DNA of 39,671 bases, taken from the NCBI GenBank assembly GCA_045613605.1, contig JAZLBH010000033.1, forward strand, positions 1 to 39,671, in the 5' to 3' direction. A program made the translations under genes and the position numbers. A model generated the notes under the pieces. That model did not search any database and was not told where the DNA came from. It saw only the letters and a list, made by a program, of their open reading frames with translations. Source of the stretch: Eubacteriales bacterium. GTDB taxonomy: Bacteria > Bacillota > Clostridia > Oscillospirales > CAG-272. Shown here one piece after another: positions 8,062 to 37,081 of the stretch; position 1 is the stretch's first letter; each line of letters starts with the position of its first letter.

Positions 8062-9813
8062 ATGAAAAAGAAGTTGTTAATAGGAATAATTGCAGGTGCG
8101 GTGCTTATAGGAGTAGTAATTGCTTGTATTCTTTTGTTTAATAAGCACGAGCATACCGAAGTGATAGATAAAGCAGTAGCACCGACTTGTGAAGCAGTTG
8201 GAATGACTGAAGGTAAGCATTGCTCTGACTGTGGAGAAATTTTAGTAGCACAAAAGGCTATTGCGGCGCTTGGTCATACCGAGGTAATAGATCCTGCCGT
8301 TGCATCTACTTGTGCAACCGAGGGAAAAACTGAGGGCAAGCATTGTTCTGTTTGCAATAAAGCTTTGGTTGAACAGCAAACAATTGCAAAGCTGCAGCAC
8401 ACAGAGACAATTACTGTTGCTGTTGAATCAACTTGCACTTCAAAAGGACTTACCGAGGGCAAGCACTGCTCGGTATGTAATGCGGTTATCGTGGCGCAAG
8501 AAGAAATAGCAATGATTGACCACGTTTTCGATGACGAATACGATAGATTTTGTAACGTATGCAATTATGAAAGACAAATTAATTGCCATCATAATGTTCC
8601 TGAAAAAATAGTAAAAGTTGATGCGGTAGCACCTACTTGTATGTCAACAGGTCTTACTGAAGGATTGAAATGTACAATTTGTGACACCATGGTTGTACCC
8701 CAAACCGTTATTCCTGTAACAGAGTGTACCGATTTGAAGATCTTGCCATATAAAGCCCCAACCTGTCAAGAAAAGGGATATACACAGGGCAAGCAATGTA
8801 ACGTTTGCCAAAATATTATTGTTGCGCAAGAGGAAATACCCGTTATAGATTGTATTGAGGGTGGATTGATCATCTCCGTTGCTGCAACCAAAACCACTGA
8901 CGGTATGGCATTGGTAAAATGTACAATGTGTGAGCGTACTATCAAAGAAGCAGTTATGGGCGCAGGCTCACAGGGACTTACCTACACCTTGAATGACGAT
9001 AATAACAGTTATTGTGTTGCCGCACTCGGAACTTGCACAGATACTGATATAGTTATACCAAGTATTTATTTTGGATTGCCTGTAACAAATATTAGAGATT
9101 ATTTTGTTACAGATTATAATGACGTTAACAGCATATCCATTCCTACTTCAATTACGGATATTGATATTGATGCATTTAAATGGTGCGAAAACATTCAACA
9201 TATATACTATATGGGGGATATTTTTGGTTGGATAGCTATGAATTTTTATAGTTATTTTGAATCGGAATTATTTCTTGAAAATGATAGAATTTTCCCATTG
9301 AATTCTAATTTCTATATTAACAATGAATTAGTGAAAGATATAGAAATACCTGCCACAATAACTACAATTCCCAAGTATGCATTTGCAGGTTGTTCATCAC
9401 TTGAAAGCATTAAATTCAATAGTTCTTTAAGCAGTATTGGATGGAATTCTTTTTTGAGCTGTCAAAATCTTAAAAAGATAATTTATGATGGAACCATTGA
9501 ACAATGGAATTCCGTCACAAAGGGAAGCTATTGGAATTATAACACGGGTGATTATGCTGTATATTGCAATGACGGTAATACGGACAAAACAGGATATCGC
9601 TTTACAGAAACAAATGATACGGTTTATTTGATTTCGTCCTTTGGCTATTTTTATGACACTATGTATGGAGAAGCCTTGTACAAGGAGTCAGAAGGTACGT
9701 CGTTTTATAGAATAGGATACTATGATAACGGATGGTCAAAGGTTATTGATTCAAAAGACAGAACCGGGTATATTCAAACTGAATACTTAGCAGGCCCCGA
9801 CTCTGAAGTGTAA
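8062..9813 (+). CDS. Membrane-anchored surface protein: N-terminal TM anchor, seven Cys/His-rich modules, BspA-type LRR unit, SH3b domain
   Basis: 583 aa. TM helix [22 protein letters not shown], ~41-aa repeats, LRR_5/BspA-like IxIPxSITxIxxxAF repeats ending in the cap [10 protein letters not shown]...YCNDG. C-terminal SH3b-like segment ...[22 protein letters not shown]. Confidence 0.8.
8152..8961 (+). repeat. Seven tandem Cys/His mini-modules (three near-canonical 41-aa copies, four variants)
   Basis: HTEVIDxAVAxTCxxxGxTEGKHCSxCxxxLVxQxxIAxL repeated. Ligand spacing is H/C-x11-C-x10-C-x2-C. Confidence 0.8.
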
Positions 9814-10541: not shown

Positions 10542-13500
10542 ATGAAATTCTTAGCTAAACTCTTTGCAACAAAGGCGGCGCTGGCAGGTACTATCGCAGG
10601 CGCGGTAGTGGTTGTCGGTGTGACCGCGGGCGTAATTTTTATGACTCCCGACGATAGCGCTGAAGCAACGACGACTACAACGGTAACTACGGTTGGAACC
10701 ACTGCGACAACTTCCGCTACCACCACAACAACTACAAGTAGTACAACAAGTGGTACAACTACAACTGTAAATCCCCCTGAGGATACTACAACAACTACCA
10801 CCGCTACAACTACTACAACTACTACAACAACTACTACAACGCAGAATCCTCCCGAGGATCCTCCGCAACAAAGCACAACGCCCACAACAAGCAGTAATCC
10901 TGCAAATCCTCCCGAGGATCCACCCGAGGACGAAAATTACTCCGAGGGCCTTGAATTTGAACTTAATGCCGACGGTGAAAGCTACATGGTAGTAGGCATC
11001 GGCACTTGTGAGGATACTGATATAGTAATCCCCGACACATATAATGGCAAGCCTGTTACGATGATTGGTTATACTGCGTTTTATAACTGCACCTCAATTA
11101 AAAGTGTAAAAATTCCTGACTCTGTAACGCTTATAGCTGAGTATGCCTTTTATAACTGTGAATCACTTGAAAGCATAGAAATTCCCGACTCCGTTACCAA
11201 TATATGCTATGCCGCGTTTGCAGAATGCCGTTCTCTTGAAGGCATAGACTTTGGTGAAAACAGTCAGCTGACAAGCATTGGTGACAGTGCATTCTATAAT
11301 TGCCGCTTTAAAAGCATAGAAATTCCAAATTCTGTTAAGAGTATCGGATTTGGGGCATTCGTATACTGTGTTTCACTTGAAAGTGTGAAAATTCCTGCCT
11401 CCGTCGAAAGTGTTGGTGAGGCTGCATTTGTAGAATGCACCTTGCTTGAAGGCGTAGAGGTTGATGAAAATAATGCTTATTATAAATCAATAGACGGTTA
11501 TCTTTACAATAAGGATGTAACAACCCTTGTACAGTCATTTAATAAAAGAAATAAGACCTTTACAATACCCGAATCTGTAACCGAGATAGGAGCTTATGCA
11601 TTTTATCATCATATTTATCTTGAGAGCGTAGAAATTCCCGACACTGTTGAAATTATCGGTGATTATGCATTCTATAACTGTCTCTCGCTCGAAGATATAA
11701 ATATTCCATCTTCCTTGATAAGTATCGGTGAAGGCGCTTTCCATAATTGTCACTTAATTGATAGTTTAGAGCTTCCCGATTCGTTGACAAGCATTGGTGA
11801 GGGCGCATTCCAACACTGCACAATAACAAGTGTAACGATAGGCAAATCCGTTGAGGTTATCGGCACTTGGGCATTTTATTCTTGCAATTTACTCACAAAT
11901 ATATACGTTGATGAGGAGAATGAATACTATCAATCAATAGACGGAAATCTTTATAATAAAGACGGAACTGCTTTGATACAGTATGCAATCGGTAAACAAG
12001 ATACGTTGTTTACAATTCCCGACACTGTGACGAGTATTTCTGCAGGTGCATTTGCATATTGTACGTCTCTTCTTAGTGTGGAAATTCCCGAATCTGTAAC
12101 CGAAATAGGTTCTTATGCATTTGAAGACTGCAATTCACTTCAAAGCATATACATCCCCGACTCGGTAACAGCTATGGGGATCGGTACCTTCTATAACTGC
12201 ACATCACTTGCAAGTATAACGTTTGCTGAAAACAGTCAGTTGACATATATTGATGATTCTACATTTTACTGCTGCTACTCACTTGAAAGCATAGAAATCC
12301 CCGACTCCGTGATAACTATTGGCGATTATGCATTTGAAAGTTGCACGGCACTTACAAGCATAGAAATTCCAAGCTCCGTAGAAAGTATCGGTGATTATGT
12401 ATTTGCTTGGTGCGAATCACTCACAAGCATATATTATGATGGCACTATAGAGCAGTGGAATGATATTTATATCGCTTATGATTGGGACTATGTAACAGGC
12501 GATTATACTATCTACTGCATCGACGGTGAAATTTCAAAGGACGGTACGGTGACGTATTATCAGACTCCTTCTGAACTCCTTGTATATACCCTTAATGATG
12601 ACGGTCAAAGCTATTCTGTAACAGGTGTAAATTCTTACGATGTTACTAGCATAGAAATTCCCGCAATGCACGAGGATAAGCCCGTTACCGCCATTGGCAA
12701 TTATGCATTTTCAAATTGCACGTCACTCATAAGCATAGCAATCCCCGACTTCGTGACAACTATCGGTGATTATGCATTCAATTGGTGCACGTCGCTTACA
12801 AGTGTAACGTTTGGAGAGAATAGCCAATTGACAAGTATAGGTAATGATGCGTTTAATGAGTGTAGTTCACTCACGGATATAGATATACCCGACTCCGTGA
12901 CAACTATCGGTGATGATGCATTCAATTGGTGCACGTCGCTTACAAGTGTAACGTTTGGTGAAAATAGTCAGTTGACAAATATTGGTGATGATGTATTTTA
13001 TTTTTGCGATTCACTCACAACTATAGAAATCCCCACCTCTGTAACAACTATTGGTGAGTCTGCATTCTCATATTGTGAATTACTTTCAAGTGTAACGTTT
13101 GCTGAAAACTCTCAGTTGACGAGTATCGGTATGTTTGCATTTGAATCATGCGAGAAGCTTGCAAGCATAGAAATTCCGGATTCCGTGACGACTATCGGTA
13201 TGGCTGCATTTGCATACTGTATGTCTCTCGAAAGTATAGAGATTCCAAAATCAGTAACGAGCATCGGCGCTGCTGCATTTGGTGAGTGTAGTTCACTTAC
13301 AAGTATAGATGTTGATAAAGATAATGAATATTATACATCAATTGATGGCAATCTTTACAACAAAAATGGAACTGTTTTGGTGCAGTACGCAGCAGGTAAG
13401 CAGGATACGTCATTTGTGATTCCTGAATCTGTAACAATTGCTGAATATGCATTTATGGGTTGCATAAATCTCCAGAGCATTGAGATTCCCGACACCATTA

Positions 13501-14069
13501 CAAATATTCCTATGGGAGCATTTGGTGAATGCTTTGCACTCACTTATGTAGAAATTCCTTCCTCCGTAACGTCTATTGGCATTAATGCGTTCTATGGTTG
13601 TTTTTCACTCATTGAGGTGTGCAATAAATCATCAATAAATATTGAGATAGGTTCAACTGATAACGGTAATGTTGGATTTTATGCAAAGCATATTATCACA
13701 GATGAATCTGAATCTTATCTTAAATATGTAGGCGATTATTTATTCTATGATGATGGAACTGACGTATATCTTGTTAAATATTTGGGCAATGATACAGAAA
13801 TAACTCTCCCCGAATATGACGGCGGAAAAGAGTACGCAATTTGGCAGTGTGCATTCCTATATTGTACTTCCATCGAAAGCATAGAAATCCCCGCCTCCGT
13901 AACCTCTATTGGTGATTATGCATTTTATTATTGCGAATCACTGTCAAGCATTAATTTTGGCGGTACGGTAGAGCAGTGGAATCTTCTTACTCAAGATGTT
14001 GATTTGTTTTATATGATTCCCGCAACAGAGGTTGTTTGCTCTGACGGAACAGTATCTATAAATCAATAA
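10542..14069 (+). CDS. Giant surface protein: N-terminal anchor, Thr/Pro-rich stalk, two consecutive BspA-type LRR units
   Basis: 1175 aa. Dozens of ~23-aa repeats IEIPDSVTxIGxxAFxxCxSLxS. Recurrent module DGNLYNKDGTxLxQYAxGKQDT. Cap motif [10 protein letters not shown]...YCIDGE mid-protein and GGTVEQWN...VCSDGT at the C-terminus. Confidence 0.85.
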   Translation: MKFLAKLFATKAALAGTIAGAVVVVGVTAGVIFMTPDDSAEATTTTTVTTVGTTATTSATTTTTTSSTTSGTTTTVNPPEDTTTTTTATTTTTTTTTTTTQNPPEDPPQQSTTPTTSSNPANPPEDPPEDENYSEGLEFELNADGESYMVVGIGTCEDTDIVIPDTYNGKPVTMIGYTAFYNCTSIKSVKIPDSVTLIAEYAFYNCESLESIEIPDSVTNICYAAFAECRSLEGIDFGENSQLTSIGDSAFYNCRFKSIEIPNSVKSIGFGAFVYCVSLESVKIPASVESVGEAAFVECTLLEGVEVDENNAYYKSIDGYLYNKDVTTLVQSFNKRNKTFTIPESVTEIGAYAFYHHIYLESVEIPDTVEIIGDYAFYNCLSLEDINIPSSLISIGEGAFHNCHLIDSLELPDSLTSIGEGAFQHCTITSVTIGKSVEVIGTWAFYSCNLLTNIYVDEENEYYQSIDGNLYNKDGTALIQYAIGKQDTLFTIPDTVTSISAGAFAYCTSLLSVEIPESVTEIGSYAFEDCNSLQSIYIPDSVTAMGIGTFYNCTSLASITFAENSQLTYIDDSTFYCCYSLESIEIPDSVITIGDYAFESCTALTSIEIPSSVESIGDYVFAWCESLTSIYYDGTIEQWNDIYIAYDWDYVTGDYTIYCIDGEISKDGTVTYYQTPSELLVYTLNDDGQSYSVTGVNSYDVTSIEIPAMHEDKPVTAIGNYAFSNCTSLISIAIPDFVTTIGDYAFNWCTSLTSVTFGENSQLTSIGNDAFNECSSLTDIDIPDSVTTIGDDAFNWCTSLTSVTFGENSQLTNIGDDVFYFCDSLTTIEIPTSVTTIGESAFSYCELLSSVTFAENSQLTSIGMFAFESCEKLASIEIPDSVTTIGMAAFAYCMSLESIEIPKSVTSIGAAAFGECSSLTSIDVDKDNEYYTSIDGNLYNKNGTVLVQYAAGKQDTSFVIPESVTIAEYAFMGCINLQSIEIPDTITNIPMGAFGECFALTYVEIPSSVTSIGINAFYGCFSLIEVCNKSSINIEIGSTDNGNVGFYAKHIITDESESYLKYVGDYLFYDDGTDVYLVKYLGNDTEITLPEYDGGKEYAIWQCAFLYCTSIESIEIPASVTSIGDYAFYYCESLSSINFGGTVEQWNLLTQDVDLFYMIPATEVVCSDGTVSINQ
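10668..10931 (+). repeat. Low-complexity Thr-rich / NPPED stalk-coding region
   Basis: Runs of up to 12 Thr codons (ACN) interspersed with NPPEDxx. The 17-nt string AATCCTCCCGAGGATCC occurs twice. The poly-Val ORFs on the minus strand are its mirror image. Confidence 0.85.
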
Positions 14070-14309: not shown

Positions 14310-14506
14310 AAAAATATCACACAAATTGAATAGAAATCTTCTTAAAGTAGGTGCGAAGTATATCTTTTAATATGTGCTTCATATTAATGTGCTTTTCCTT
14401 GTTTTGGCAGTATTTGGATTCGATTTATGTGGTAACAATGGAGGCGTGCATTTTTCGGTGCGCTGACTCTGGTTGGCACACTTTTTATTTTCAAAGGAGA
14501 AAGGTT

Positions 14507-15637
14507 ATGAAAAAGACAATTAAAATATTACTATTTGCTATTATTGTTGTTAGTGCACTTTCGTTAACGTCCTGTTTTAGTAACAGTGAATCAAAAGGAC
14601 TTGTTTTTGAACTTAATGATGATAAATCAAGCTATAGTGTTGTGGGATTAGGTGGTTGCAAGAATTCAAATATTGTAATTCCAAACGAATATAAAGGATT
14701 ACCTGTAACGAAAATCGGGGAGTATGCATTTTCTACACAGAAAATAACCGGAGTGAAACTTTCCGACAATATAGAAGAGATAGGTGATTACGCATTTTCA
14801 AATTGTCCTAAATTGAAAACGATAAAATTTTCCGAAAGTGGCAAACTCAAAACCATTGGTGACTACGCATTTTATTGGCCAAGCTTTTGGCTTTGGGATT
14901 TATATATTCCTGAAGGGGTAGAAGAAATAGGACAGCATGCATTTGATCTGGCGTGGCCTATCAACGTCTCTTTGCCGAATTCACTAATGAGTGTAGGTGA
15001 GGGTGCTTTTGTGGGAATGAACGGAGCAGAGGGTAGCCACGAAGCATATTATTTTGATTTTATGACTCCTTATAATGTTTACGATAATGCTATCTATCTC
15101 GGAAATAAAACAAATCCTGAGCTTTTGTTATGTTCAATACATAATACAGAAGCATATAATTGTAGTATTAGTGAGAAAACTAAAATAATCGCGACTAGGG
15201 CATTTTTGGGTTCTAATAATTTGAAAAAAATAACGGTTCCTGCTTCTGTTAAAAATATCGGTTTTATAGCATTTGCTTTGTGTACTTCACTTGAATCAAT
15301 AAATGTTGATGAAAACAATACTGAGTTTAAGTCCATAGATGGTAACCTTTATTCTAAGGATGGCAAGTATCTTTTACAATATGCTATAGGAAAACAGGAT
15401 AGTACATTTTTTGTTCCGGACACCGTAAAGATAATTGAAAGTTATGCTTTTTACAAAGTACAAAATCTTAATGCTGTTTTTATTCCTAATTCGGTGAAAG
15501 TTGTAGGTAGCTATGTATTTTCTTCATCTTCATCTGATTTATACATATTTTGTGAAGCGGAATCTCAACCGGCAGATTGGCTAGAAGATTGGAATTTTTA
15601 TGATTGTCCAGTAGTTTGGGGATATAATCCCGAATAA
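14507..15637 (+). CDS. BspA-type LRR lipoprotein
   Basis: Start set to ATG 14507 (AAAGGAGAAAGG RBS). Signal peptide MKKTIKILLFAIIVVSALSLTS-C has a lipobox LTSC. LRR_5 repeats, DGNLYSKDGKYLLQYAIGKQDS module and C-terminal cap IFCEAESQPADWLEDWN...VVWGYNPE. Confidence 0.85.
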   Translation: MKKTIKILLFAIIVVSALSLTSCFSNSESKGLVFELNDDKSSYSVVGLGGCKNSNIVIPNEYKGLPVTKIGEYAFSTQKITGVKLSDNIEEIGDYAFSNCPKLKTIKFSESGKLKTIGDYAFYWPSFWLWDLYIPEGVEEIGQHAFDLAWPINVSLPNSLMSVGEGAFVGMNGAEGSHEAYYFDFMTPYNVYDNAIYLGNKTNPELLLCSIHNTEAYNCSISEKTKIIATRAFLGSNNLKKITVPASVKNIGFIAFALCTSLESINVDENNTEFKSIDGNLYSKDGKYLLQYAIGKQDSTFFVPDTVKIIESYAFYKVQNLNAVFIPNSVKVVGSYVFSSSSSDLYIFCEAESQPADWLEDWNFYDCPVVWGYNPE

Positions 15638-27153: not shown

Positions 27154-28263
27154 ATGAGAGTTTTAATGACAGGCGGTGGCACGGCAGGGCACATTAATCC
27201 CGCGCTTGCTATAGCTAATACGATAAAAGCTAATATTCCCGATGCCGAGATTGAATTTGTCGGTACGGCTCGCGGACTTGAAAATACACTTGTAACAAAA
27301 GAGGGATATAAGCTCCATCACGTGAATATCAGAGGAATCAGCCGTTCGCTTTCGCCAAGCAATATCAAGGCAGTTATGCTTATGTTCACCTCTCAAATCG
27401 AGGCTAAGAAAATCATAAAGGAGTTCAAGCCCGATATCGTTATAGGTACCGGTGGATACGTTTGTTGGCCTGCCCTTAAGGTTGCCGCAAAGATGGGAAT
27501 TCCAACCGTTGTGCACGAATCAAACGCGCGTCCCGGTCTTGCAATAAAGCAGCTTCAGGGTAATCTTGACAGAATTTTGGTAAATTTTAAGGATACCGAA
27601 AAATATATCAAAAGCAAAGAAAAGGTAATGCACGTTGGAAACCCCATTAGAGGGGGATTTGGCGGACTTGATTACAGTGAGGCAAGAAAAATGCTAGGTA
27701 TCAAGGATGACGAGACCTACGTTCTTGCCTTTGGCGGAAGCCTTGGCGCTCAAAGAATGAACGAGATCGTTTTTGATTATATGAAAAACCATGCAAGAAA
27801 TGACAGCAAGGTCGTTTGCCATCTTGCAACGGGAAGAATATATTATCAAGAATTTTCTCAAATGTATAAGGACGCAGGACTTGAAGACTGTGAAAATCTT
27901 TCTATGATGGAATATATCCACGATATGCACGTAAGAATGAGCGCCGCGGACCTTATTATTTGCCGAGCGGGAGCTATGACGATTTCAGAGCTTGCAATGA
28001 TGAAAAAGGCATCACTTATTATTCCTTCACCCAACGTTGTTGACAATCACCAATACAAAAACGCAAAGGTTCTTGCTGATGCGGGCGCTACCGTATTGAT
28101 TGAGGAAAAGGATCTTAACGGTAACACCTTTGCAGACGCTGTTAATGAGCTTGTTGCAAATCAAAGCAAGAGGGAAGAGCTTAGACGTAATATCGTTCAG
28201 TTTGCAAATACCGATGCAAACAAATTAATTTATGATGAGATAATTAAGCTCACGAAAAAATGA
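27154..28263 (+). CDS. murG: UDP-N-acetylglucosamine--N-acetylmuramyl-(pentapeptide) pyrophosphoryl-undecaprenol GlcNAc transferase
   Basis: TGGGTAGHINPALA N-terminus, GT28 architecture, ICRAGAMTISEL motif. Confidence 0.92.
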   Translation: MRVLMTGGGTAGHINPALAIANTIKANIPDAEIEFVGTARGLENTLVTKEGYKLHHVNIRGISRSLSPSNIKAVMLMFTSQIEAKKIIKEFKPDIVIGTGGYVCWPALKVAAKMGIPTVVHESNARPGLAIKQLQGNLDRILVNFKDTEKYIKSKEKVMHVGNPIRGGFGGLDYSEARKMLGIKDDETYVLAFGGSLGAQRMNEIVFDYMKNHARNDSKVVCHLATGRIYYQEFSQMYKDAGLEDCENLSMMEYIHDMHVRMSAADLIICRAGAMTISELAMMKKASLIIPSPNVVDNHQYKNAKVLADAGATVLIEEKDLNGNTFADAVNELVANQSKREELRRNIVQFANTDANKLIYDEIIKLTKK

Positions 28264-29084
28264 TTATGGAAGAAAAAATAAATCAAAACGAAGAAAACCT
28301 CAAAAAGCATTCGTTGGCAAGTAAGCTTATATTTGCTATTGCTTTAATTCTTGCGGCTGCGATTATCCTGGGAATTATATCCACCGGTATTCTTTTGTGC
28401 TTTCCCGTTAAGCAAATTGAGGTCTCGGGAGATAGCAGATATACCTATTCTGAGATAATTGAAGCATCGGGAATAAAAAGTGGGGCAAGACTTTATTTTT
28501 TGAATGAAAAGAAGGCTGAGAGAGCGCTTTTGGCATCATTCCCATATCTTAAAGACGTTAAGATAAATTCGTACTTTCCCAACAGAGTAAAAATTGATAT
28601 TGAGGAGTTTGAAGATATATATCTTGTTCCTCACGTCAACGGATTTTGCTACGTTAACGGTGATTTTGAAATATTAGAGATAATAGAATCTGCGCCGGAA
28701 TACGAAAGATTCTCCGGTATATTCATTAAGCTTGAATTTCCGATTGAGGGAGAGATAGGGGCCCTTTCTATGAATGATGACGCCCAAAGAGCAACGGAGC
28801 TTATAGAATTTATTAAGGAATACGGATTCTATAGCCACCTCAATATTGTGGACGTGGAAAATAAATATGACAATGCGTTTATTGTTGACAAGCAGTATAA
28901 ATTCATTATTGGGTCCATGACGGATATTTCCGAAAAGATTGACGTTGCCTTTAAGGTGTGCTTTAGCAATAGCTTTGTTAAAGAAAATAATGCTATTATC
29001 GATGCAACGGACAAGAAAAAGGTGACTTTGCGTTACGTTGATGATGAAAATATACGCTTAGAATTTGATTTTTGTCAAAAATAA
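28260..29084 (+). CDS. ftsQ: Cell-division protein FtsQ/DivIB
   Basis: Single N-terminal TM followed by a POTRA-like segment (IEVSGDSRYTYSEIIEASGIKSGARLYFLN...). ATGA overlap with murG. An alternative ATG lies at 28266. Confidence 0.8.
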   Translation: MIMEEKINQNEENLKKHSLASKLIFAIALILAAAIILGIISTGILLCFPVKQIEVSGDSRYTYSEIIEASGIKSGARLYFLNEKKAERALLASFPYLKDVKINSYFPNRVKIDIEEFEDIYLVPHVNGFCYVNGDFEILEIIESAPEYERFSGIFIKLEFPIEGEIGALSMNDDAQRATELIEFIKEYGFYSHLNIVDVENKYDNAFIVDKQYKFIIGSMTDISEKIDVAFKVCFSNSFVKENNAIIDATDKKKVTLRYVDDENIRLEFDFCQK

Positions 29085-29207: not shown

Positions 29208-30293
29208 ATGATTTTCGAACATGACGATAGCATGAACTGTGGCGTTAATATAAAGGTTATTGGCGTCGGCGGTGGCGGTAACAATGCCGTTAACCGTATG
29301 ATCAACACAAATATTAAGGGTGTTGAATTTGTGGCTATTAATACTGATAGACAGGCACTCAGAAGAAGCGATGCTTCAGTTCAGCTTGTTATCGGTGAAA
29401 AGGTAACTAAGGGATTTGGCGCAGGCGCTAACCCCGTTATCGGTACTCGTTCAGCTGAGGAATCAGTTGAAGAAATTAAGGCTATTCTTACAGGTGCAGA
29501 CATGTGCTTCGTTACTGCCGGTATGGGCGGTGGCACAGGTACAGGTGCGGCTCCCGTAGTTGCCAGAATAGCAAAGGAGCTTGATATTCTTACTGTAGGT
29601 ATCGTTACAAAGCCCTTTGCATTTGAAGGCGCAAAGAGAATGAATCAGGCAGAAGACGGTATTGCTGCTCTTTCTTCCTACGTTGACGCTCTTGTTGTAA
29701 TTCCCAACGAAAGACTTAAGCAGGTTTCTGATACAAGAATCACACTTGCAAACGCTTTTGAGGCTGCTGACGACGTTCTTCGTCGCGGTGTTCAGAGCAT
29801 TTCTGAGCTTATCTCCGTTCCCGCATTCATCAACCTTGACTTTGCTGACGTAACTTCTATCATGAAGAACGCAGGATATGCTCATATGGGTGTTGGTAGT
29901 GCAACAGGTAAGGATAAGGCTGAGCTTGCTGCTAAGGCTGCTATCTCCAGTCCCCTTCTTGAAACAACAATCAAGGGTGCTACAGGCGTTATCATCAGTA
30001 TCACAGCTTCTCCTGACGTTGGACTTCAGGACGTTGACGTTGCATCTGCAATGATTTCTGCAGAAGCAAATCCCGAAGCAAACGTTATCTGGGGTGTTGC
30101 ATTTGATCCTGAGCTTGAGGATGAAATGAGAATTACAATCGTTGCTACAGGCTTCGAAAAGAAGTTTGAGGATCAGCCTGCTGCTAAGAAGGCAGATGAG
30201 GTTAAGAGCACAAAGGCTGCTAAGACAAGCGCTCCTGCTCAGGAAAGCAACGATCTTGATTTTGATGACCTTTTCTCAGTATTTAAGAGATAA
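29208..30293 (+). CDS. ftsZ: Cell-division GTPase FtsZ
   Basis: [13 protein letters not shown] and tubulin signature [11 protein letters not shown]. Disordered linker and conserved C-terminal peptide [13 protein letters not shown]. Confidence 0.95.
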
Positions 30294-30308
30294 TTAATTA
30301 CACAAAAA

Positions 30309-30338
30309 ATCGCTCACGGTCGTGGGCGATTTTTTTTG
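30309..30338 (+). terminator. Intrinsic terminator ending the dcw cluster
   Basis: 9-bp stem ATCGCTCAC / GTGGGCGAT followed by TTTTTTTT. Confidence 0.8.
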
Positions 30339-30383
30339 TTGCGGCATATAATGAGAGTAGCGACTTTACAAAGGAGATATATA

Positions 30384-30947
30384 ATGGATAACAATAATAT
30401 AAGCAATCATATATGCAACAACAATCATAAAAGAATGGAAAGAAATTATAACCTGCGGGTTGCTAATGAAGGAATGCCGAGAAAAGAAGAAAACACCAAC
30501 GATGATAGATTGAACACTCACAAGGATTATTGCGATTTGTGTGTGGATAGATGCAAGAACGAGCACGGTGGTGAGGTGTACGGATTGAACGTTGAAAAGA
30601 GTGCGTTTAGGAACCGCAATTTCAGGGAAAGCGTATGGACGGGTAAATATTTGCAAATGACTTTGATGAATATTTTGCGAGGCGATGACATTGGGGTTGA
30701 GCGACACGAGGACACCGACCAATACATTAGGGTGGAGCACGGAAATGCTATTGTAATAACGGGGAGTACGGAGCAGTGCCTTGATAATAAAATAAGACTT
30801 GGCAAGGGCGATGCAGTGCTTATTCCTGCAGGCACTTGGCATAACGTGATTAACGTGGGTAGGTGCGATTTGAAGCTTTCATCGGTATATGCGCCGCCAC
30901 ATCATCCCAAATGCACAGTGGAAAGAAGCAGGGGCGATCGGTGTTGA
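30384..30947 (+). CDS. Cupin-domain protein
   Basis: Cupin_2-like core GVERHEDTDQYIRVEHG...GDAVLIPAGTWHNVINVG. Start set to ATG 30384 (AAAGGAG RBS); the track starts at TTG 30336. Confidence 0.7.
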   Translation: MDNNNISNHICNNNHKRMERNYNLRVANEGMPRKEENTNDDRLNTHKDYCDLCVDRCKNEHGGEVYGLNVEKSAFRNRNFRESVWTGKYLQMTLMNILRGDDIGVERHEDTDQYIRVEHGNAIVITGSTEQCLDNKIRLGKGDAVLIPAGTWHNVINVGRCDLKLSSVYAPPHHPKCTVERSRGDRC

Positions 30948-30959
30948 TAATAATAAGAT

Positions 30960-30984
30960 AGCAGGGCATAGCCCTGCTTTTTTG
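30960..30984 (+). terminator. Intrinsic terminator
   Basis: AGCAGGGC-ATA-GCCCTGCT followed by TTTTTT. Confidence 0.8.
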
Positions 30985-30985
30985 G

Positions 30986-31014
30986 TTGACAACGTCCTTG
31001 TGTTGTGTTATAAT
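30986..31014 (+). promoter_or_regulatory. Sigma-A promoter of the collagen-like/SBP gene
   Basis: TTGACA 30986-30991, 17-nt spacer, TGtTATAAT with -10 at 31009-31014. Confidence 0.75.
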
Positions 31015-31060
31015 GTACACATGATATTTTAACGTAGTTAAATGTGAAAGGAAAAAGACT

Positions 31061-32740
31061 ATGAAGGCAATACTTTTGAAATGGCTTCCTTTAATATTAT
31101 CGTTGGCAGTATGTATAACGACGTTGGCTGTTACCTTTAGTGCTAAATCAGAGCCTGCTGATAACGGCAAATCCGCATATGAGATAGCCGTTGAGCACGG
31201 ATTTGAGGGAACTGAAGAGGAATGGCGTGCGTCCCTTAAGGGAGAAGCAGGCATTAAAGGCGACAAGGGCGACACAGGTGAGTCAGGCGCTCAAGGTGAA
31301 AAGGGCGACACGGGTGAAACAGGTGCTCAAGGTCCTAAAGGCGACAAGGGTGACACAGGTGCTAAGGGCGAAAAGGGTGACAAGGGTGACACAGGTCCTC
31401 AGGGAGAAAAGGGTGACAAGGGCGACAAGGGTGATACATTGTCATATGACGGCTCAGAAGTAACGATTACATTTTGGCACGCAATGGGGGCTGATAACAA
31501 AAAGCTGCTTGATGAGGCAATTGCACGATTCAACGAAAAATACCCCAACATCACTGTTGAGCATCAGTCCTACGGTGACTACGACGGCGTATTTGACCAG
31601 ATCAGAACAAAGCTCACAGCAGGCAAACAGCCCAACTTGGCATTCTGCTATCCTGACCACGTAGCTACTTACAACAAGGCAGGCGCCGTTTTGACTCTTG
31701 ATTCCCTTATTAACAATCAGAATGTTATTGCAGGATCTAATGAAATAATGGGCTTTACACAGGCTCAAATCGATGATTTTATACCTGCATTTTATGAAGA
31801 GGGCAGAATGTTTGGCGACGGCAAGATGTATTCACTTCCGTTTATGAAATCAACTGAGCTTCTCTATTATAATAAGACGGTGTTTGATTCACTTGGCCTT
31901 GAAGCTCCCGAAACGTGGGACGACGTTGAAGCTATAATCAAGGTCCTTAAAGAAGAATATCCAAATTCTATTCCTCTTGGATATGACTCCGAGGAAAATA
32001 TGTTCATCACACTTGCCGCTCAGTACGGTTCTGAATACACAAGTGCAACAGGTGACCACTATACATTTGTAAACGATACAAACAAGGAATTCCTTGCTAA
32101 GTTTGCTGAATGGTACCAGACGGGTTGGTTGACCACATCTGCTCTTATGGGTGGTTCTTACACATCCGACGGCTTTACTAAGGATAATGATGAAATCGGT
32201 AAGATTTTCATGTCTATCGGTTCTTCTGCAGGTGCTAGATATCAGAGACCTAACAAGGTTGATGGCGAATACCCCTTCGAAGTGGGAATCGTTTCTGTTC
32301 CTCAGGTAGATCCTTCTAACCCCAAGGTTATTTCTCGGGGTCCCTCTATCTGTATCTTTGAAGACGAAAACGTTCAGGAAGTCTATGCTTCTTGGCTCTT
32401 CCTCAAATTCCTTACAACTGATTTGGAATTCCAAGCTGAATACTCTGAGAAGTCCGGTTATGTTCCCGTAATCCAGTCCGTTGTGGAAACAGAGCAATAC
32501 CAAGACTTGCTTGAAAAAGCAGACGGCGGTGAATTTATTACTGCTCTTGCAATAAAGGTTTCCTGTGAGCAATATAATGCGTATTTTAACACTCCCGCAT
32601 TTTCAGGCTCTGCAAATGCTCGTGAACAGGTTGGTCTTCTTCTTCAGTCCGTATTTGCAAAATACAGCCTCGTAAATGATAACACAGCTATGATAAACAG
32701 TGAATTCCAAAAATATTATGAGTATTGTATAAATGACTAA
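31061..32740 (+). CDS. Membrane-anchored collagen-like repeat protein fused to an ABC-type extracellular solute-binding domain
   Basis: 559 aa. Hydrophobic N-terminus, then [26 protein letters not shown], then 22 Gly-X-Y triplets. The C-terminal part is a family-1 SBP-like domain ([31 protein letters not shown]...). Confidence 0.8.
31241..31438 (+). repeat. Collagen-like (Gly-X-Y)x22 coding repeat
   Basis: Uninterrupted [24 protein letters not shown] ... GDK GDK GDT. The DNA is built from imperfect 9/18-bp units GGYGAYAARGGYGAYACN. Confidence 0.9.
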
Positions 32741-32745
32741 TAAAT

Positions 32746-32783
32746 AAAAGCAAAAGGCGTTCATTTGAACGCCTTTTGCTTTT
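32746..32783. terminator. Bidirectional intrinsic terminator between convergent genes
   Basis: 17-bp perfect stem AAAAGCAAAAGGCGTTC / GAACGCCTTTTGCTTTT. Confidence 0.85.
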
Positions 32784-33648
32784 AGAATATTGGTAATACG
32801 TCGATTATTAAGCCTGAGATAACTGATATTGTGAAAAGGAGCGCAACGATCAAGATATTGTTCTTTCTTGGACGGTTGGTTCTGAAAAGAACTGCAAGTG
32901 CAACTCCCGAATTTGCCAAAAGACCTGAAAGCATTATGCCTGCAGAAAGTATTCCGTCGACGTAAAGCTCACTTATTATTACGCTTGATGCACAGTTGGG
33001 AATTAGTCCGACCAACGCGGAAAGGATGTTTGCGAGTATTGGCTTGTTTAATATCAAATCTGCTATATTTTCTTTACCGATGCCGTGAATTATCAGGTTG
33101 AGCACAAGGGTAAGGGCAAAGATAAACGTGCCGATTTTGAGCGTGTGAACCAGGGCAGGCTTGAATACGCTGTGGTGACAGTGGCAATCCTCTCTTTCAC
33201 AAAATTCCTCAATTTTGCTTTCAAGCTTGATTGATTTTTTACTGTAAATAACTTTTATGGCAAGGTCGATGGCAATTCCCATAACAAGAGCAATGGCAAG
33301 CTTTATAAGAAGCACCTTAATGATTACATTAAAGCCGATGCTGTGGGAAAGAAAGATGGGAATCATCTCATCACTTGTCGATAAAAACACCGCAATTAAG
33401 GTGCCAAGTGAGATCACCCTTGCGCTGTAAAGCCCTGCAGCGGCGGAAGAGAATCCGCACTGCGGCAAGAGTCCAAGGGAGGCACCTATGAGTGAGCCAA
33501 ATTGTCCTGAGCGCTTTAATACGCGCTCAGCCACGTCCTCAGAGCGATGCTCAAGATATTCCATTAAAAGATAGGTTAAAAACAGGAACGGAATCAGCTT
33601 TATTGATTCAATAAAGCTATGCTCCAATATATGAATAAATTCAGGCAT
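32782..33648 (-). CDS. Polytopic membrane protein, putative ArsP_2-type (10-TM) permease / metal exporter
   Basis: 288 aa, ~8-10 TM. GLLPQCGFS and LIPNCASS motifs in two pseudo-repeats. Central loop CEREDCHCHH (nt 33172-33201). Family assignment is from memory only. Confidence 0.55.
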   Translation of the reverse strand: MPEFIHILEHSFIESIKLIPFLFLTYLLMEYLEHRSEDVAERVLKRSGQFGSLIGASLGLLPQCGFSSAAAGLYSARVISLGTLIAVFLSTSDEMIPIFLSHSIGFNVIIKVLLIKLAIALVMGIAIDLAIKVIYSKKSIKLESKIEEFCEREDCHCHHSVFKPALVHTLKIGTFIFALTLVLNLIIHGIGKENIADLILNKPILANILSALVGLIPNCASSVIISELYVDGILSAGIMLSGLLANSGVALAVLFRTNRPRKNNILIVALLFTISVISGLIIDVLPIF

Positions 33649-33680
33649 TTATTTTCTCCAAAGTTATATATTGACGCATT

Positions 33681-33709
33681 ATTGTAACACAAAGAAAGTT
33701 TTTTGTCAA
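33681..33709 (-). promoter_or_regulatory. Sigma-A promoter of the permease gene
   Basis: On the minus strand: TTGACA (33704-33709), 17-nt spacer, TGtTACAAT (-10 at 33681-33686). Confidence 0.7.
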
Positions 33710-33722
33710 TAAGCAAAATTTG

Positions 33723-33751
33723 TTGACTTTTGTGTGCGAATGTTATATAAT
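33723..33751 (+). promoter_or_regulatory. Sigma-A promoter of the PHP gene
   Basis: TTGACT 33723-33728, 17-nt spacer, TATAAT 33746-33751. Confidence 0.65.
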
Positions 33752-33782
33752 ATTAGAAGAAATACAGCTTTTTGGAGAAAAA

Positions 33783-34568
33783 ATGTTTTACTACGAATTA
33801 CATTCACACACAAACGCCGCAAGCTTATGCTCCATAGTTGAGCCTGAGGCTTACGTTGGCTTTTATATTAAAATGGGTTATTCCGGAATGGTGGTTACAG
33901 ACCATTTTTATCACGGAAATACGTCGGTTAACAGACGAATGCCTTGGGATATGTTCATTGACGAATATTGTGAGGGATATTATAGAGCTAAAAGAGAAGG
34001 AGATAAGCACGGATTTACTGTGTTCTTTGGATTTGAACAAAAATTCACTGACGGTAATGATGAATATATTGTGCTTGGCATCTCCCCCGAATGGCTAAAG
34101 TCGCATCCCGAAATCAGAGATATGGACAGAATTCCGTTTTTTGAGCTTATGCATAAGGCGGGCGGCTTTGTTATTCAAGCGCATCCCTTCAGAGAAAGAT
34201 ATTATATTTCGGATATAAGATTATCACTCGATTACGTTGATGCTATTGAGGTATATAATCAGGGTGATACTGATCAGCAGGTCAGAAGAGCCTATGAATA
34301 TGCCAAAAATCTTAGCTTGCCCATGACGGCGGGAACTGATATACATTCAATCCACGATAGAGAAGTGGTTGGCGGTGTTGCTTTGGAAAAGAAAATAAAT
34401 ACCGTTGAGGAGCTTATTGAAGAAATAAAGCTCGGCAGAGCAAAAATAGCAATGGCGCAGGAGCTTGAAAGAATAAAGCAGCTTCCATTGGATAAAAATG
34501 TGGATCTTAAGGTTTATTGCCTTAAGGAAAACGGACTTGAGATAACGAATAATTATTTTGAAAAATAA
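33783..34568 (+). CDS. PHP-domain metal-dependent phosphoesterase
   Basis: N-terminal ELHSHTNAAS motif, later HPF...E and GTDIH motifs typical of the PHP fold. Start set to ATG 33783 (GGAGAAAAA RBS); the track starts at TTG 33720. Confidence 0.7.
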   Translation: MFYYELHSHTNAASLCSIVEPEAYVGFYIKMGYSGMVVTDHFYHGNTSVNRRMPWDMFIDEYCEGYYRAKREGDKHGFTVFFGFEQKFTDGNDEYIVLGISPEWLKSHPEIRDMDRIPFFELMHKAGGFVIQAHPFRERYYISDIRLSLDYVDAIEVYNQGDTDQQVRRAYEYAKNLSLPMTAGTDIHSIHDREVVGGVALEKKINTVEELIEEIKLGRAKIAMAQELERIKQLPLDKNVDLKVYCLKENGLEITNNYFEK

Positions 34569-34608: not shown

Positions 34609-34691
34609 GTGCTTTTAGACAAATAGAAATGCAAAAAATAGGTGCTATTAAACAAATATTGTGAACAAATTATATATTTTTACAAAATATG

Positions 34692-34720
34692 TTGCTATTT
34701 ATATATATTTAAGTTATAAT
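34692..34720 (+). promoter_or_regulatory. Sigma-A promoter of the pectate lyase gene
   Basis: TTGCTA 34692-34697, 17-nt spacer, TATAAT 34715-34720. Confidence 0.6.
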
Positions 34721-34774
34721 AAAATGGGTATGTTCATAAAAAACAAGAGAATATTTCTCGAGAAAGGAAAAAAT

Positions 34775-37081
34775 ATGAAAAAAATACTTACACTTACACT
34801 TGTGTTAGTTATGCTTATTGGTGTAGTAGCTTCCTGCACACCTCAAAACAGCAATACTACGTCCTCAGGCATTAAGGAGGATCCTAACGGTCCTTCATGC
34901 GATATCCATACGGATATGGACGGAGATAACAATTGTGACGATTGTGGTGATATTATTCATAAGGATGATTCGACTCCGGATCCTGATGATCCGAATCAGA
35001 ATACCGGTACTACAACAACTACACCCACAACTGCAACTACAACTACAACACAAAAGCCCGATAATACTACAGAAACGGCTCCCGCCAGCTCTACAACTGC
35101 TACAACTACAGCAACCACACAAAAGCCAGTCGAGGATACTCCTGTTTCGGGCACTATCAACGTTTTCCTTGCAGGATATTCATTTGAAACAATCTATTTT
35201 GAGTGGAAGCCCCTTGCGGGAGCTGATAGCTACAACGTTTACTGTGACGGTAAAAAGGTTGATGGCGAGCTTATCAGAAATTATGGCTCATACTATAGAT
35301 GTGACATTCTTGGTCTTAAGGCGGGCTCTTACGATATTGAGGTTTATGCCGTTGATAATGGTCAAGAGGTAGCTGATTCTAAGACAGGCTTTACAAGAAG
35401 CACTATTGCTCATGTAAGAGAGGGATTTGCTTTCGTTAACGGTACATCAAGCGGTGCTTATAATGATGACGGTACGCTCAAGAGCAACGCGCAGGTGATT
35501 TACGTTACCGCGGCTAACGCAAAAACCGTAACCGCGAACGTTAACGGCGCGCTTCAAACGGGACTTCAGACCATTCTTGACGCAAAGCAAAAGGCAAACA
35601 CCTCAAACGACGTTTTGTGTATTCGTATTATCGGTATGATATCGGCTTCTGATATGGACCATTTTTCAAGCTCATCCGAGGGGCTTCAGATCAAAGGAAA
35701 AGCCGCATATACCGATATGAATATTACGATTGAGGGCGTTGGTAACGACGCTACCATCAACGGATTCGGCTTCTTGCTCAGAAACTGCAAGAACGTTGAA
35801 ATTCGAAATATTGCCATTATGAACTTTATGGACGACGGAATCTCGGTTGATACCGATAACTGTAATTTGTGGTTACATAATATTGATTTCTTCTACGGTC
35901 AGGCGGGCGGAGATTCCGACCAGAATAAAGGCGACGGTTCGCTTGACATAAAGAAATCACAGTATATTACGGTTTCATACAACCATTTCTTTGATTCGGG
36001 TAAATGCTGTCTTCTTGATGCTTCAACGGGCAATAATGCAGACTATATTTCATATCATCACAACTGGTTTGACCATTCCGACTCGCGTCATCCCCGTGTA
36101 AGAAACGCTAACGTTCACGTTTATAATAACTATTACGACGGGGTTTCTAAATACGGCATAGGCGCTGCGGGCGGAGGTAGCTCGGTATTCTCTGAGGCAA
36201 ACTATTTTGAAAACACCAAATATCCTATGCTTACCTCTATGCAGGGAAGCGATATCGCAGGTGATGGCGAGGGTACGTTCTCCGGCGAGGACGGCGGCGT
36301 GATAAAGAGCTTTGGCGACGTAATTGTTGGCGGTACGTTCCGCCCCTACAGCTCAACCAATACGGTTGAATACGACGCTTACGTAGCTGCAAGCAGAAAT
36401 GAAGCGCTTTCATCAAGCATCGCTTCAAAGCAGGGTGGATATACTTACAGCAATTTTGATACTGCAGACGATATGTATAGCTATAATCCTCATACCGCTG
36501 AGCAGGCAAGGGAAAACGTTATTGCGTTTGCGGGACGCGTTCAGGGCGGTGACTTCAAGTGGACGTTTACCGATGCCGACGATGCTTCTTATGCAATCAA
36601 TTCTTCTCTTCAAGCTGCCATAAACAATTATGAGAGCTCACTTGTTTCTACCAACGCGGGCAATACCTCATCCGGAGGAAGCGGAAGTGATGATAGCGGA
36701 AACGGTAACGGCGGAACAGATACACCCGTTGTGACACCTACTCCCGAGGGTGCTATCGTTCACAACTTCCACGAAAGCGGAAAGGCATCAAGCTTCTTTA
36801 CTATCAACGGAAATCTTTCAAGCTCAAAGGGTACAATTACATATAACGGTATGTCACTTACTCAGTGCTTGAAGATGGAGTCCTCTACCTCCATTACCTT
36901 TACGCTTACTGAGGCAAGAATGCTTACTCTTGTGTTTGGCACCGCGGGCAAAACCGTTAAAATTAACGGTCAAGCCTATACAACAGATGCAAACGGTATT
37001 GTAAGCGTTGCTCTTGGCTTAGGAAATCACACGATAACGAAGGGTGACTCAATCAACCTTTATTATATGATGCTTGACTAA
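34775..37081 (+). CDS. Secreted lipoprotein pectate lyase (polysaccharide lyase family 1-like) with Thr-rich linker and C-terminal accessory domain
   Basis: Start set to ATG 34775. Signal peptide with lipobox VAS-C. Catalytic core GDGSLDIKKSQYITVSYNHF...YHHNWFDHSDSRHPRVRNANVHVYNNYY matches the PL1 pectate lyase pattern (Ca-binding Asp residues, RxPxxR). Confidence 0.8.
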   Translation: MKKILTLTLVLVMLIGVVASCTPQNSNTTSSGIKEDPNGPSCDIHTDMDGDNNCDDCGDIIHKDDSTPDPDDPNQNTGTTTTTPTTATTTTTQKPDNTTETAPASSTTATTTATTQKPVEDTPVSGTINVFLAGYSFETIYFEWKPLAGADSYNVYCDGKKVDGELIRNYGSYYRCDILGLKAGSYDIEVYAVDNGQEVADSKTGFTRSTIAHVREGFAFVNGTSSGAYNDDGTLKSNAQVIYVTAANAKTVTANVNGALQTGLQTILDAKQKANTSNDVLCIRIIGMISASDMDHFSSSSEGLQIKGKAAYTDMNITIEGVGNDATINGFGFLLRNCKNVEIRNIAIMNFMDDGISVDTDNCNLWLHNIDFFYGQAGGDSDQNKGDGSLDIKKSQYITVSYNHFFDSGKCCLLDASTGNNADYISYHHNWFDHSDSRHPRVRNANVHVYNNYYDGVSKYGIGAAGGGSSVFSEANYFENTKYPMLTSMQGSDIAGDGEGTFSGEDGGVIKSFGDVIVGGTFRPYSSTNTVEYDAYVAASRNEALSSSIASKQGGYTYSNFDTADDMYSYNPHTAEQARENVIAFAGRVQGGDFKWTFTDADDASYAINSSLQAAINNYESSLVSTNAGNTSSGGSGSDDSGNGNGGTDTPVVTPTPEGAIVHNFHESGKASSFFTINGNLSSSKGTITYNGMSLTQCLKMESSTSITFTLTEARMLTLVFGTAGKTVKINGQAYTTDANGIVSVALGLGNHTITKGDSINLYYMMLD

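Follow-up and report, generated by a model that had tools for sequence, protein, structure and literature searches.

A predicted solute-binding protein on a collagen-like stalk in an uncultured lineage of gut Clostridia

In the multi-SBP systems of Gram-positive bacteria an extra solute-binding protein (SBP) is encoded away from the permeases of the ATP-binding cassette (ABC) importer that it presumably serves and, where the SBP is fused or tethered, as in systems of the GlnPQ/OpuA type, tether length is a functional variable. We know of no system of either kind with a collagen-like, potentially trimerising tether. A collagen-like region and an SBP domain have been reported together in silico in Bucl13 of Burkholderia pseudomallei and Burkholderia mallei, where an SBP_bac_3 domain comes after 12-25 Gly-X-Y triplets (Bachert et al. 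2015, PMC4565658). A Thermus protein that binds UpG has been placed beside UgpB in the CUT1 family (PMC12718374), an article that cites Chandravanshi et al. 2021 for this dinucleotide-binding SBP (PDB 7C0F series). Here we consider COL-SBP, a gene at positions 31061-32740 of a stretch of 39,671 nucleotides (assembly GCA_045613605.1, contig JAZLBH010000033.1), the whole of which was analysed and is referred to below as the window. The DNA is from an Eubacteriales bacterium (Oscillospirales; CAG-272), of an uncultured gut Clostridia lineage.

Sequence comparisons identify COL-SBP as a paralogue, lineage-specific and transcribed on its own, of the lipoprotein SBP that belongs to a CUT1-type importer. 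The lipoprotein signal and short linker of that family have been exchanged for a hydrophobic helix, a motif of phage-tail-fibre type and 22 Gly-X-Y triplets. The protein is organised as follows.

31061-32740, + strand: COL-SBP open reading frame, 559 residues plus stop, uninterrupted (open reading frame call, Pfam).
31061-31141, + strand: hydrophobic N-terminal helix, residues 1-27 (Kyte-Doolittle, AlphaFold2).
31166-31240, + strand: pre-collagen motif of 25 residues, the SAYEIAV motif, residues 36-60 (AlphaFold2, PHROG matches, motif counts).
31241-31438, + strand: collagen-like stalk of 22 unbroken Gly-X-Y triplets, residues 61-126 (sequence, Pfam).
31439-32737, + strand: family-1 (CUT1-type) SBP head, residues 127-559, closest to the dinucleotide-binding/UgpB sub-group (Pfam, AlphaFold2, Foldseek).

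Pfam recognises SBP_bac_8 (123 bits against a cut-off of 27, E 2e-35), SBP_bac_1 (99.7 bits, cut-off 26, E 4e-28) and Collagen PF01391 (39.1 bits, cut-off 27.2). AlphaFold2 models the head as the two-lobe periplasmic-binding-protein fold with a predicted local distance difference test (pLDDT) score above 90, and Foldseek matches this model to more than 1000 SBP entries in the PDB, the first being 7C0x (E 1e-24, target-normalised TM-score of about 0.8). A search of 5.8 billion proteins returned more than 100 homologues of the head at 58-80% identity. Most are lipoproteins of 466-498 residues with a classical lipobox, a short variable linker and a conserved YDGSxVTITFWHTMG start; in eight the N-terminal insert is longer, and among all these proteins Collagen is present only in the window protein and in P0002, which is 93% identical. 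There are 203 head columns conserved in at least 90% of 118 homologues; the window protein keeps 195 and the COL-SBP alleles described below keep 190-195.

The N-terminus departs from that of the family. Over residues 1-27 the 19-residue Kyte-Doolittle means reach 2.1 and AlphaFold2 places a helix at residues 2-26. The single cysteine of the segment (C18, in L-A-V-C) lies mid-helix with valine at -1, which does not constitute a standard lipobox. The lipobox column, cysteine in 97% of the 118 homologues, is not so in the window protein, and the pattern of a Gram-positive lipoprotein signal is not matched. The helix is probably an uncleaved signal-anchor that takes the place of the canonical lipoprotein signal.

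The motif at residues 36-60 is modelled as a helix-loop-helix (helices 39-45 and 52-59, pLDDT approximately 82) and is a candidate nucleation or trimerisation element. Phage tail-fibre families are trimeric, and residues 28-126 match many of the tail-fibre families in PHROG. In the proteins retrieved, a set biased by the query, 212 of 316 copies of the motif run straight into at least four Gly-X-Y triplets. A scan of viral contigs revealed hundreds of relatives in which motif and collagen occur together, the best at about 60-70% identity, and no closer donor of the N-terminal module was found among them. The motif and collagen are also combined with a lipoprotein signal in some short cellular proteins (P0158, P0185, P0156 and P0225). 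A protein search with residues 1-135 gave only proteins of fewer than 240 residues, not even the query's own cluster, and for that reason could not reveal the C-terminal partners of the module. None of the solved structures contains the motif, and its sequence was not found printed in searchable papers.

The stalk is encoded by a tandem array of 4.8 copies of a 36-nucleotide unit. Charged residues occupy 61% of the X and Y positions, with 11 KGD/KGE pairs and two prolines, a composition that fits a triple helix free of hydroxyproline; such pairs are reported to stabilise proline-poor, hydroxyproline-free triple helices (Persikov et al. 2005; Mohs et al. 2007). If triple-helical, the 66 residues would extend for about 19 nm (0.286 nm per residue), and the head begins its first strand only some seven residues after the last triplet. 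A reasonable reading of this arrangement is a stalk-displayed, probably trimeric binding module.

Might the Gly-X-Y block be a mere extended charged spacer, giving a monomeric SBP on a long tether in an ordinary transporter role? The segment between anchor and head is hypervariable across the family: it may be short, rich in Thr, Pro and Ser (P0022, P0029, P0034), rich in Gly and Glu (P0434, P0399), or hold Cys-rich or Ig-like inserts. That variability favours a spacer, as do a count of just 22 triplets with two prolines and the absence of structure over residues 61-125 in the AlphaFold2 model, where pLDDT falls below 35. Such values are expected of a monomer, however, and a monomer model is incapable of showing a triple helix. 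The perfect periodicity over 66 residues and the 11-fold KGD/KGE pattern also speak against a spacer, and the dedicated pre-collagen motif, common to phage tail-fibre families, argues for a triple-helix module gained as a block. We consider the spacer unlikely.

The gene is part of an inserted cassette, the elements of which are listed here.

30948-32744, + strand: lineage-specific cassette of new terminator, promoter and entire COL-SBP gene, placed after the cupin stop codon and before an ancestral shared terminator (blastn against L017 and L020).
30960-30978, + strand: hairpin and T-run that terminates the upstream cupin gene, part of the insert (terminator scan; 8-bp stem with 6 GC pairs; missing at empty-site loci).
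30986-31014, + strand: sigma-70-type promoter, TTGACA-17-TATAAT with an extended -10 TG (12/12 match; the sole perfect site in the 3.6 kb at 30200-33800).
31047-31052, + strand: Shine-Dalgarno-like AAAGGA, 8 nucleotides before the ATG (read from sequence).
32745-32784: bidirectional terminator common to COL-SBP and the convergent ArsP_2 gene (terminator scan; homologous to the terminator of the empty site).

Comparison by blastn with two loci from which the gene is absent, L017 and L020, shows homology breaking at about 30924-30927 and resuming at about 32742-32752. At the empty sites (L017, L018, L019, and L020 from the metagenome-assembled genome GCA_045637205.1) the cupin and ArsP_2 genes are approximately 35 bp apart and have one common terminator. 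The genomes concerned are the nearest others found, with FtsZ 96% identical and amino-acid identity of 80-81% at the locus. The empty sites in these sister loci therefore mark 30948-32744 as a 1.8-kb insertion just upstream of the ancestral terminator.

The filled site occurs in the window and in L001 (ERZ28018852) and L016 (ERZ27297584), which are independent metagenome assemblies with the same 559-residue architecture at the same locus and DNA 96% identical to that of the window. All three alleles have 22 triplets, with no glycine substitution and no indel. The ratio of non-synonymous to synonymous substitution rates (dN/dS) among their heads is 0.15-0.19, and the gene is under purifying selection. 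It is confined to one species-level lineage, from which these three metagenome alleles are known. Repetitive Gly-X-Y DNA could mis-join contigs and the architecture is rare, so that an assembly chimera or a decaying pseudogene might be suspected. Three independent assemblies that agree in architecture, length and synteny, an intact frame with low dN/dS, and a promoter and Shine-Dalgarno sequence close to consensus exclude both, and we regard this explanation as effectively refuted.

Two other origins were considered. Cargo of a prophage or mobile element is not indicated: neither an integrase nor any phage gene is present, the insert consists of one gene, and its two junctions show nothing beyond a TAATAA microhomology. 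Recent transfer of the head from a distant lineage is not indicated either, since its 74-80% identity to the SBPs of related species is about that of the locus and its composition is unremarkable. The TAATAA sequences (window 30945-30957 and 32738-32746) overlap the stop codons of the cupin and SBP genes and could be either insertion microhomology or just stop-codon-rich sequence. Allele L001 is mosaic upstream of ftsZ. Comparison of its positions 124-2053 with window 27154-29084 gives 89% identity for MurG and 65% for FtsQ, against 97-98% for FtsZ, cupin and ArsP_2, implying a recombination breakpoint between ftsQ and ftsZ.

A preliminary description of this DNA, made from the letters of the window, had set out much of the above: the single open reading frame with a hydrophobic residue 1-27 segment and at best an atypical LAV-C lipobox, the motif followed by 22 perfect triplets at 31241-31438, a complete family-1 SBP domain, a promoter at 30986-31014 and a terminator belonging to the gene itself, and a motif that commonly precedes such rods. 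These observations hold, the triplet count exactly, and the profile matches it anticipated, Collagen and SBP_bac_1/8, all exceed their Pfam cut-offs. The Foldseek result agrees for the C-terminal region, the PHROG and viral-contig matches agree for the motif, and the alleles L001 and L016 dispose of the chimeric join that it had named as a risk. It had further remarked that no permease or ATPase is adjacent and that the next gene, which is ArsP_2, is convergent. We likewise find no BPD_transp_1 permease gene anywhere in the window, that is over some 30 kb upstream and 7 kb downstream of COL-SBP, and the sole ABC ATPase present (92-817) adjoins a SufBD-core gene and looks SufC-like.

The closest relatives of the head are encoded in operons. 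It is 74-80% identical to operon-encoded lipoprotein SBPs (P0003, P0004 and P0007, for example), and in each of the eight canonical loci retrieved (those of P0003-P0007 and P0059) the same neighbourhood is preserved as far as the contig reaches, with an upstream permease and/or a downstream SNase gene. In the longest contigs the complete order is RDD protein, ABC ATPase, two BPD_transp_1 permeases, SBP, SNase-domain protein and a large protein without Pfam domains, the last two both having lipoprotein signals. SurE and two DHH/DHHA1 genes adjoin the operon on the opposite strand. The combination suggests an undescribed system for scavenging extracellular nucleic acids. Copies of the operon in uncultured Eubacteriales are located at L002 6016-16022, L013 327-6471 and L014 6048-16124.

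The COL-SBP head is a mosaic and exchanges sequence with the canonical gene, each allele carrying a tract shared with canonical genes. That of the window is the following.

31527-31678, + strand: gene-conversion footprint, a 152-nucleotide tract (gene nucleotides 467-618) that differs at no more than one position from the canonical SBP genes of L013 and L103, to which overall identity is 81%.

In allele L001 the tract is another one, of 97-100 nucleotides, that matches the same L013/L103 type, and allele L016 has one of 63 nucleotides matching the L012/L104 type. Codon shuffling reached 152 or 97 nucleotides in none of 5000 trials. Between alleles, synonymous divergence amounts to 0.17-0.25 for the head and 0.02-0.07 for the N-terminal module, a value 3-10 times higher in the head and the pattern expected when a paralogue donates sequence only to that part. 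Metagenome ERZ27297584 is the source of both the canonical locus L013 and the COL-SBP allele L016, and L013 and L103 differ by 4% in DNA, equal to the differences between COL-SBP alleles at their locus. On the basis of head identity near 80%, the retained conserved columns and the conversion tracts, the cognate importer is probably encoded in the same lineage, which would make COL-SBP an orphan by position only. A scan of genome contigs for the genome of the window gave no match above 80%, so that the placing of the canonical operon in that genome depends on the conversion tracts and on a single co-occurrence in a metagenome. A neighbour-joining tree of heads places the COL-SBPs on a long branch together with other long-branch variants, P0095 and P0100, that carry N-terminal extensions; we judge this tree unreliable because of mosaicism and long-branch attraction.

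Aspects of ligand recognition can be approached by comparison with the Thermus protein. The best PDB match to COL-SBP in sequence (E 2e-15) as well as in fold is the Thermus thermophilus 'dinucleotide-binding protein of ABC transporter' with uridylyl-3'-5'-phosphoguanosine (7C0x, an identity taken from the Foldseek descriptions). The next matches are UgpB of Escherichia coli and Mycobacterium tuberculosis, and sugar binders rank lower. A literature search for PDB code 7C0F found nothing relevant. The mutated residues N81A, S127A, T240A and Q274A were located by aligning deposited variants with the wild type, and Y56, F79, Y224 and Y246 were placed through the residue-numbering offset that these four provide. 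At approximately 20% identity, and with the Y224/F372 site in a gapped region, the alignment pairs Thermus Y56 with Y174, F79 with Y197, N81 with D199, S127 with S264, Y224 with F372, T240 with S388, Y246 with Y394 and Q274 with Q426 of the window family. Invariance at these eight columns extends to 104-118 of 118 family members, and the family consensus is identical or conservative at all eight. The window allele retains seven of these putative ligand residues, the change being Q426R.

32336-32338, + strand: codon for R426, glutamine in 117 of 118 homologues and in the other two alleles, aligned with Thermus Q274 (alignment).

The Thermus match, the binding-site columns, the surface nuclease of the canonical operon and its DHH/DHHA1 and SurE neighbours together make a nucleotide or phosphodiester ligand, a product of nuclease action, the best-supported guess, with a glycan less likely. 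Two suggestions in the preliminary description need to be revised. It had named glycan capture, besides an adhesin or sensor role, where sequence, fold, binding-site residues and operon context now point to nucleotides or phosphodiesters, and it had taken the protein for an orphan rather than a classical transporter subunit, a position difficult to reconcile with a head about 80% identical to SBPs of complete operons, 190-195 of 203 conserved columns and tracts of 97-152 nucleotides.

What, then, might COL-SBP do? We give roughly even chances to its being a trimeric, stalked accessory receptor for nucleotide-type ligands that still serves an importer encoded elsewhere. The N-terminal helix would anchor the protein in the membrane and the motif would nucleate a parallel collagen triple helix, so placing three heads on a rod of about 19 nm. 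This rod could reach into or across the cell wall or, if hinged at the flexible residues 27-35, sweep a radius of 20 nm. The heads would bind the ligand class of the canonical SBP, most likely dinucleotides or oligonucleotides freed by the surface nuclease, and COL-SBP would act as an extended-reach, high-avidity accessory receptor for the importer elsewhere in the genome.

Several observations weigh against this proposal. We infer the triple helix and the trimerisation, only a monomer having been modelled. Unless a strong trimerisation domain supports them, 22 triplets with two prolines may have marginal stability at 37 °C. Without a hinge, a rigid rod of 19 nm anchored in the membrane that also holds the permease would make it hard for the heads to dock there. 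Co-occurrence of the canonical operon with COL-SBP is seen at the level of the metagenome, not of the same genome, and the ligand assignment depends on the distant Thermus alignment. Each allele is also altered at putative ligand residues with 99-100% conservation in the family, namely Q426R in the window, D199E with S264A in L001 and D199E in L016. The conserved columns at which an allele deviates number 8-13, where the 60 closest homologues have a median of 1 and a maximum of 8. Such deviations at conserved sites suggest an altered or relaxed specificity, which may be shifting.

Additions to the head are common in this family, in which 12,891 hits have E below 1e-10. Among 120 full-length representatives of clusters at 50% identity, an extension of more than 100 residues precedes the head in 48 (40%) and one of more than 200 in 28. 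In these decorated representatives (P0362-P0401 and others) the head lies C-terminal to an extension of 100 to more than 800 residues, and nine are extended C-terminally as well. Most extensions have no Pfam match; some contain LRR_5, Flg_new or Big_2/thioredoxin domains and there are also Cys-rich repeats. A distant member, P0400, with a head 49% identical, has a lipobox, a variant of the motif, nine Gly-X-Y triplets and further domains before the head. Given such frequent decoration, the window gene is a rare and clean instance of a wider theme and not one of a kind. For the two decorated members examined, P0079 and P0095, the genes also lie away from those of permeases, and more of the conserved columns are changed.

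These relatives bear on the alternative that COL-SBP is uncoupled from transport and acts as a surface adhesin or sensor, its head a trimeric, lectin-like former transporter component for extracellular nucleic-acid fragments more probably than for glycans. Apart from the ligand, this comes near to what the preliminary description had proposed. The two decorated members just mentioned resemble COL-SBP in position and in deviation, and the LRR_5, Big_2 and Flg_new domains found in some of the 48 extended representatives are those of surface proteins. The stand-alone promoter and terminator, the distance to any permease, the loss of the lipobox and the substitutions at conserved columns and putative ligand residues would all be accommodated. 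Yet the identity of the head to canonical SBPs is still about 80% and its dN/dS 0.15-0.19, and most conserved columns are kept, among them those of seven of the eight putative ligand residues for the window allele. No target of an adhesin suggests itself, and neither a histidine kinase nor a chemoreceptor gene, which might act as a signalling partner, is annotated next to COL-SBP in the window. We view the uncoupled receptor as possible but doubtful. A bolder proposal, that COL-SBP is a bacterial analogue of the collectins, a membrane-anchored homotrimer on a collagen rod that catches nucleic-acid fragments by avidity, and the most striking case in gut Clostridia of an undescribed class in which the SBP serves as a surface receptor, its head a modular C-terminal unit of large surface proteins encoded apart from any transporter (the 40% of cluster representatives above), seems to us improbable.

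SBPs are taken as monomeric, membrane-proximal shuttles, and if the stalk trimerises COL-SBP would be a naturally oligomeric SBP created by grafting of a phage-fibre-type collagen module to a functioning part of a transporter. If true, this would bear on the contributions of tether length and avidity to ligand capture in Gram-positive envelopes and would offer a compact natural display scaffold. The canonical operon, by pairing an SBP of dinucleotide-binding type with a surface nuclease, suggests scavenging of extracellular nucleic acids in the gut and a possible physiological role for dinucleotide-binding SBPs. We caution that the whole account is one of inference at the level of sequence.

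The wider surroundings of the gene in the window are as follows. A cell-division/cell-wall (dcw) gene cluster runs from mraZ to ftsZ, and after it come cupin, COL-SBP, the permease gene ArsP_2 in convergent orientation, and genes for a PHP protein and for a pectate lyase that has a CBM77. Farther upstream the window encodes Suf proteins, PFK, transporters of MatE type and for thiamine, and three leucine-rich repeat proteins of BspA type. The three BspA-type LRR_5 genes are successive (8062-9813, 10542-14069 and 14351-15637), one with a product of 1175 residues, and form a surface-protein cluster upstream of the dcw operon. The cupin frame at 30336-30947 has 203 residues by mechanical calling from a TTG, 187 according to gene callers on the allelic contigs and 133-167 in the empty-site relatives, and its protein is weakly conserved (58-63% identity) relative to its neighbours. 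The pectate lyase (34661-37081), lipoprotein-like and 806 residues long, carries its CBM77 at the C-terminus and has a long linker rich in Thr and Pro; the L020 orthologue is just 59% identical, against about 80% for the adjoining genes.

Comparison with known systems places COL-SBP between several of them. With the canonical SBPs of its own family it shares a head 74-80% identical, the conserved columns, the putative ligand residues and a record of gene conversion. Those proteins have a classical lipobox, a linker of 10-20 residues and no collagen, and are co-transcribed with permeases, whereas the window protein combines a transmembrane helix with the motif and 22 triplets, and its gene lies by itself at the ftsZ-cupin locus. 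The Thermus SBP and UgpB are the best matches in sequence and fold, and in the family each of the eight ligand residues is either kept or exchanged for a similar one. They differ in being soluble periplasmic proteins of about 20% identity without a stalk, and the window allele has R426 at the position of Q274.

With Scl1/Scl2, BclA, Lcl and the phage tail-fibre modules, COL-SBP has in common a proline-poor, charged Gly-X-Y stalk that lies beside a non-collagenous element and presents a globular domain. The NCBIfam models for Lcl and Scl1/Scl2 give partial matches over the repeats only, at 49-51 bits against cut-offs of 325-500, and the protein as a whole does not match them. The window protein has an N-terminal helix in place of an LPXTG or exosporium signal, and the head of a transporter SBP in place of a V or C1q-like domain. 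A spore-coat or exosporium role of the BclA kind was considered and set aside, there being no such signal in a protein with an N-terminal transmembrane anchor and a promoter of housekeeping type.

The nearest precedent in design is Bucl13. Both proteins have a short N-terminus, a collagen-like region and a C-terminal SBP domain, and both are known from sequence alone. Bucl13 differs in its SBP family (family 3, for amino acids and opines), in its Gram-negative host, in its GIR/GVR/GSG triplets and in having no SAYEIAV motif reported. The preliminary description had not recognised the architecture as described; in the light of Bucl13, of the frequent decoration of the family and of P0400, that view is too strong. 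The combination of collagen and SBP is rare but has precedent, and by its sequence the window protein, which carries an SBP domain of family 1/8 rather than 3, would be an analogue of the Bucl13 type and not a member of it.

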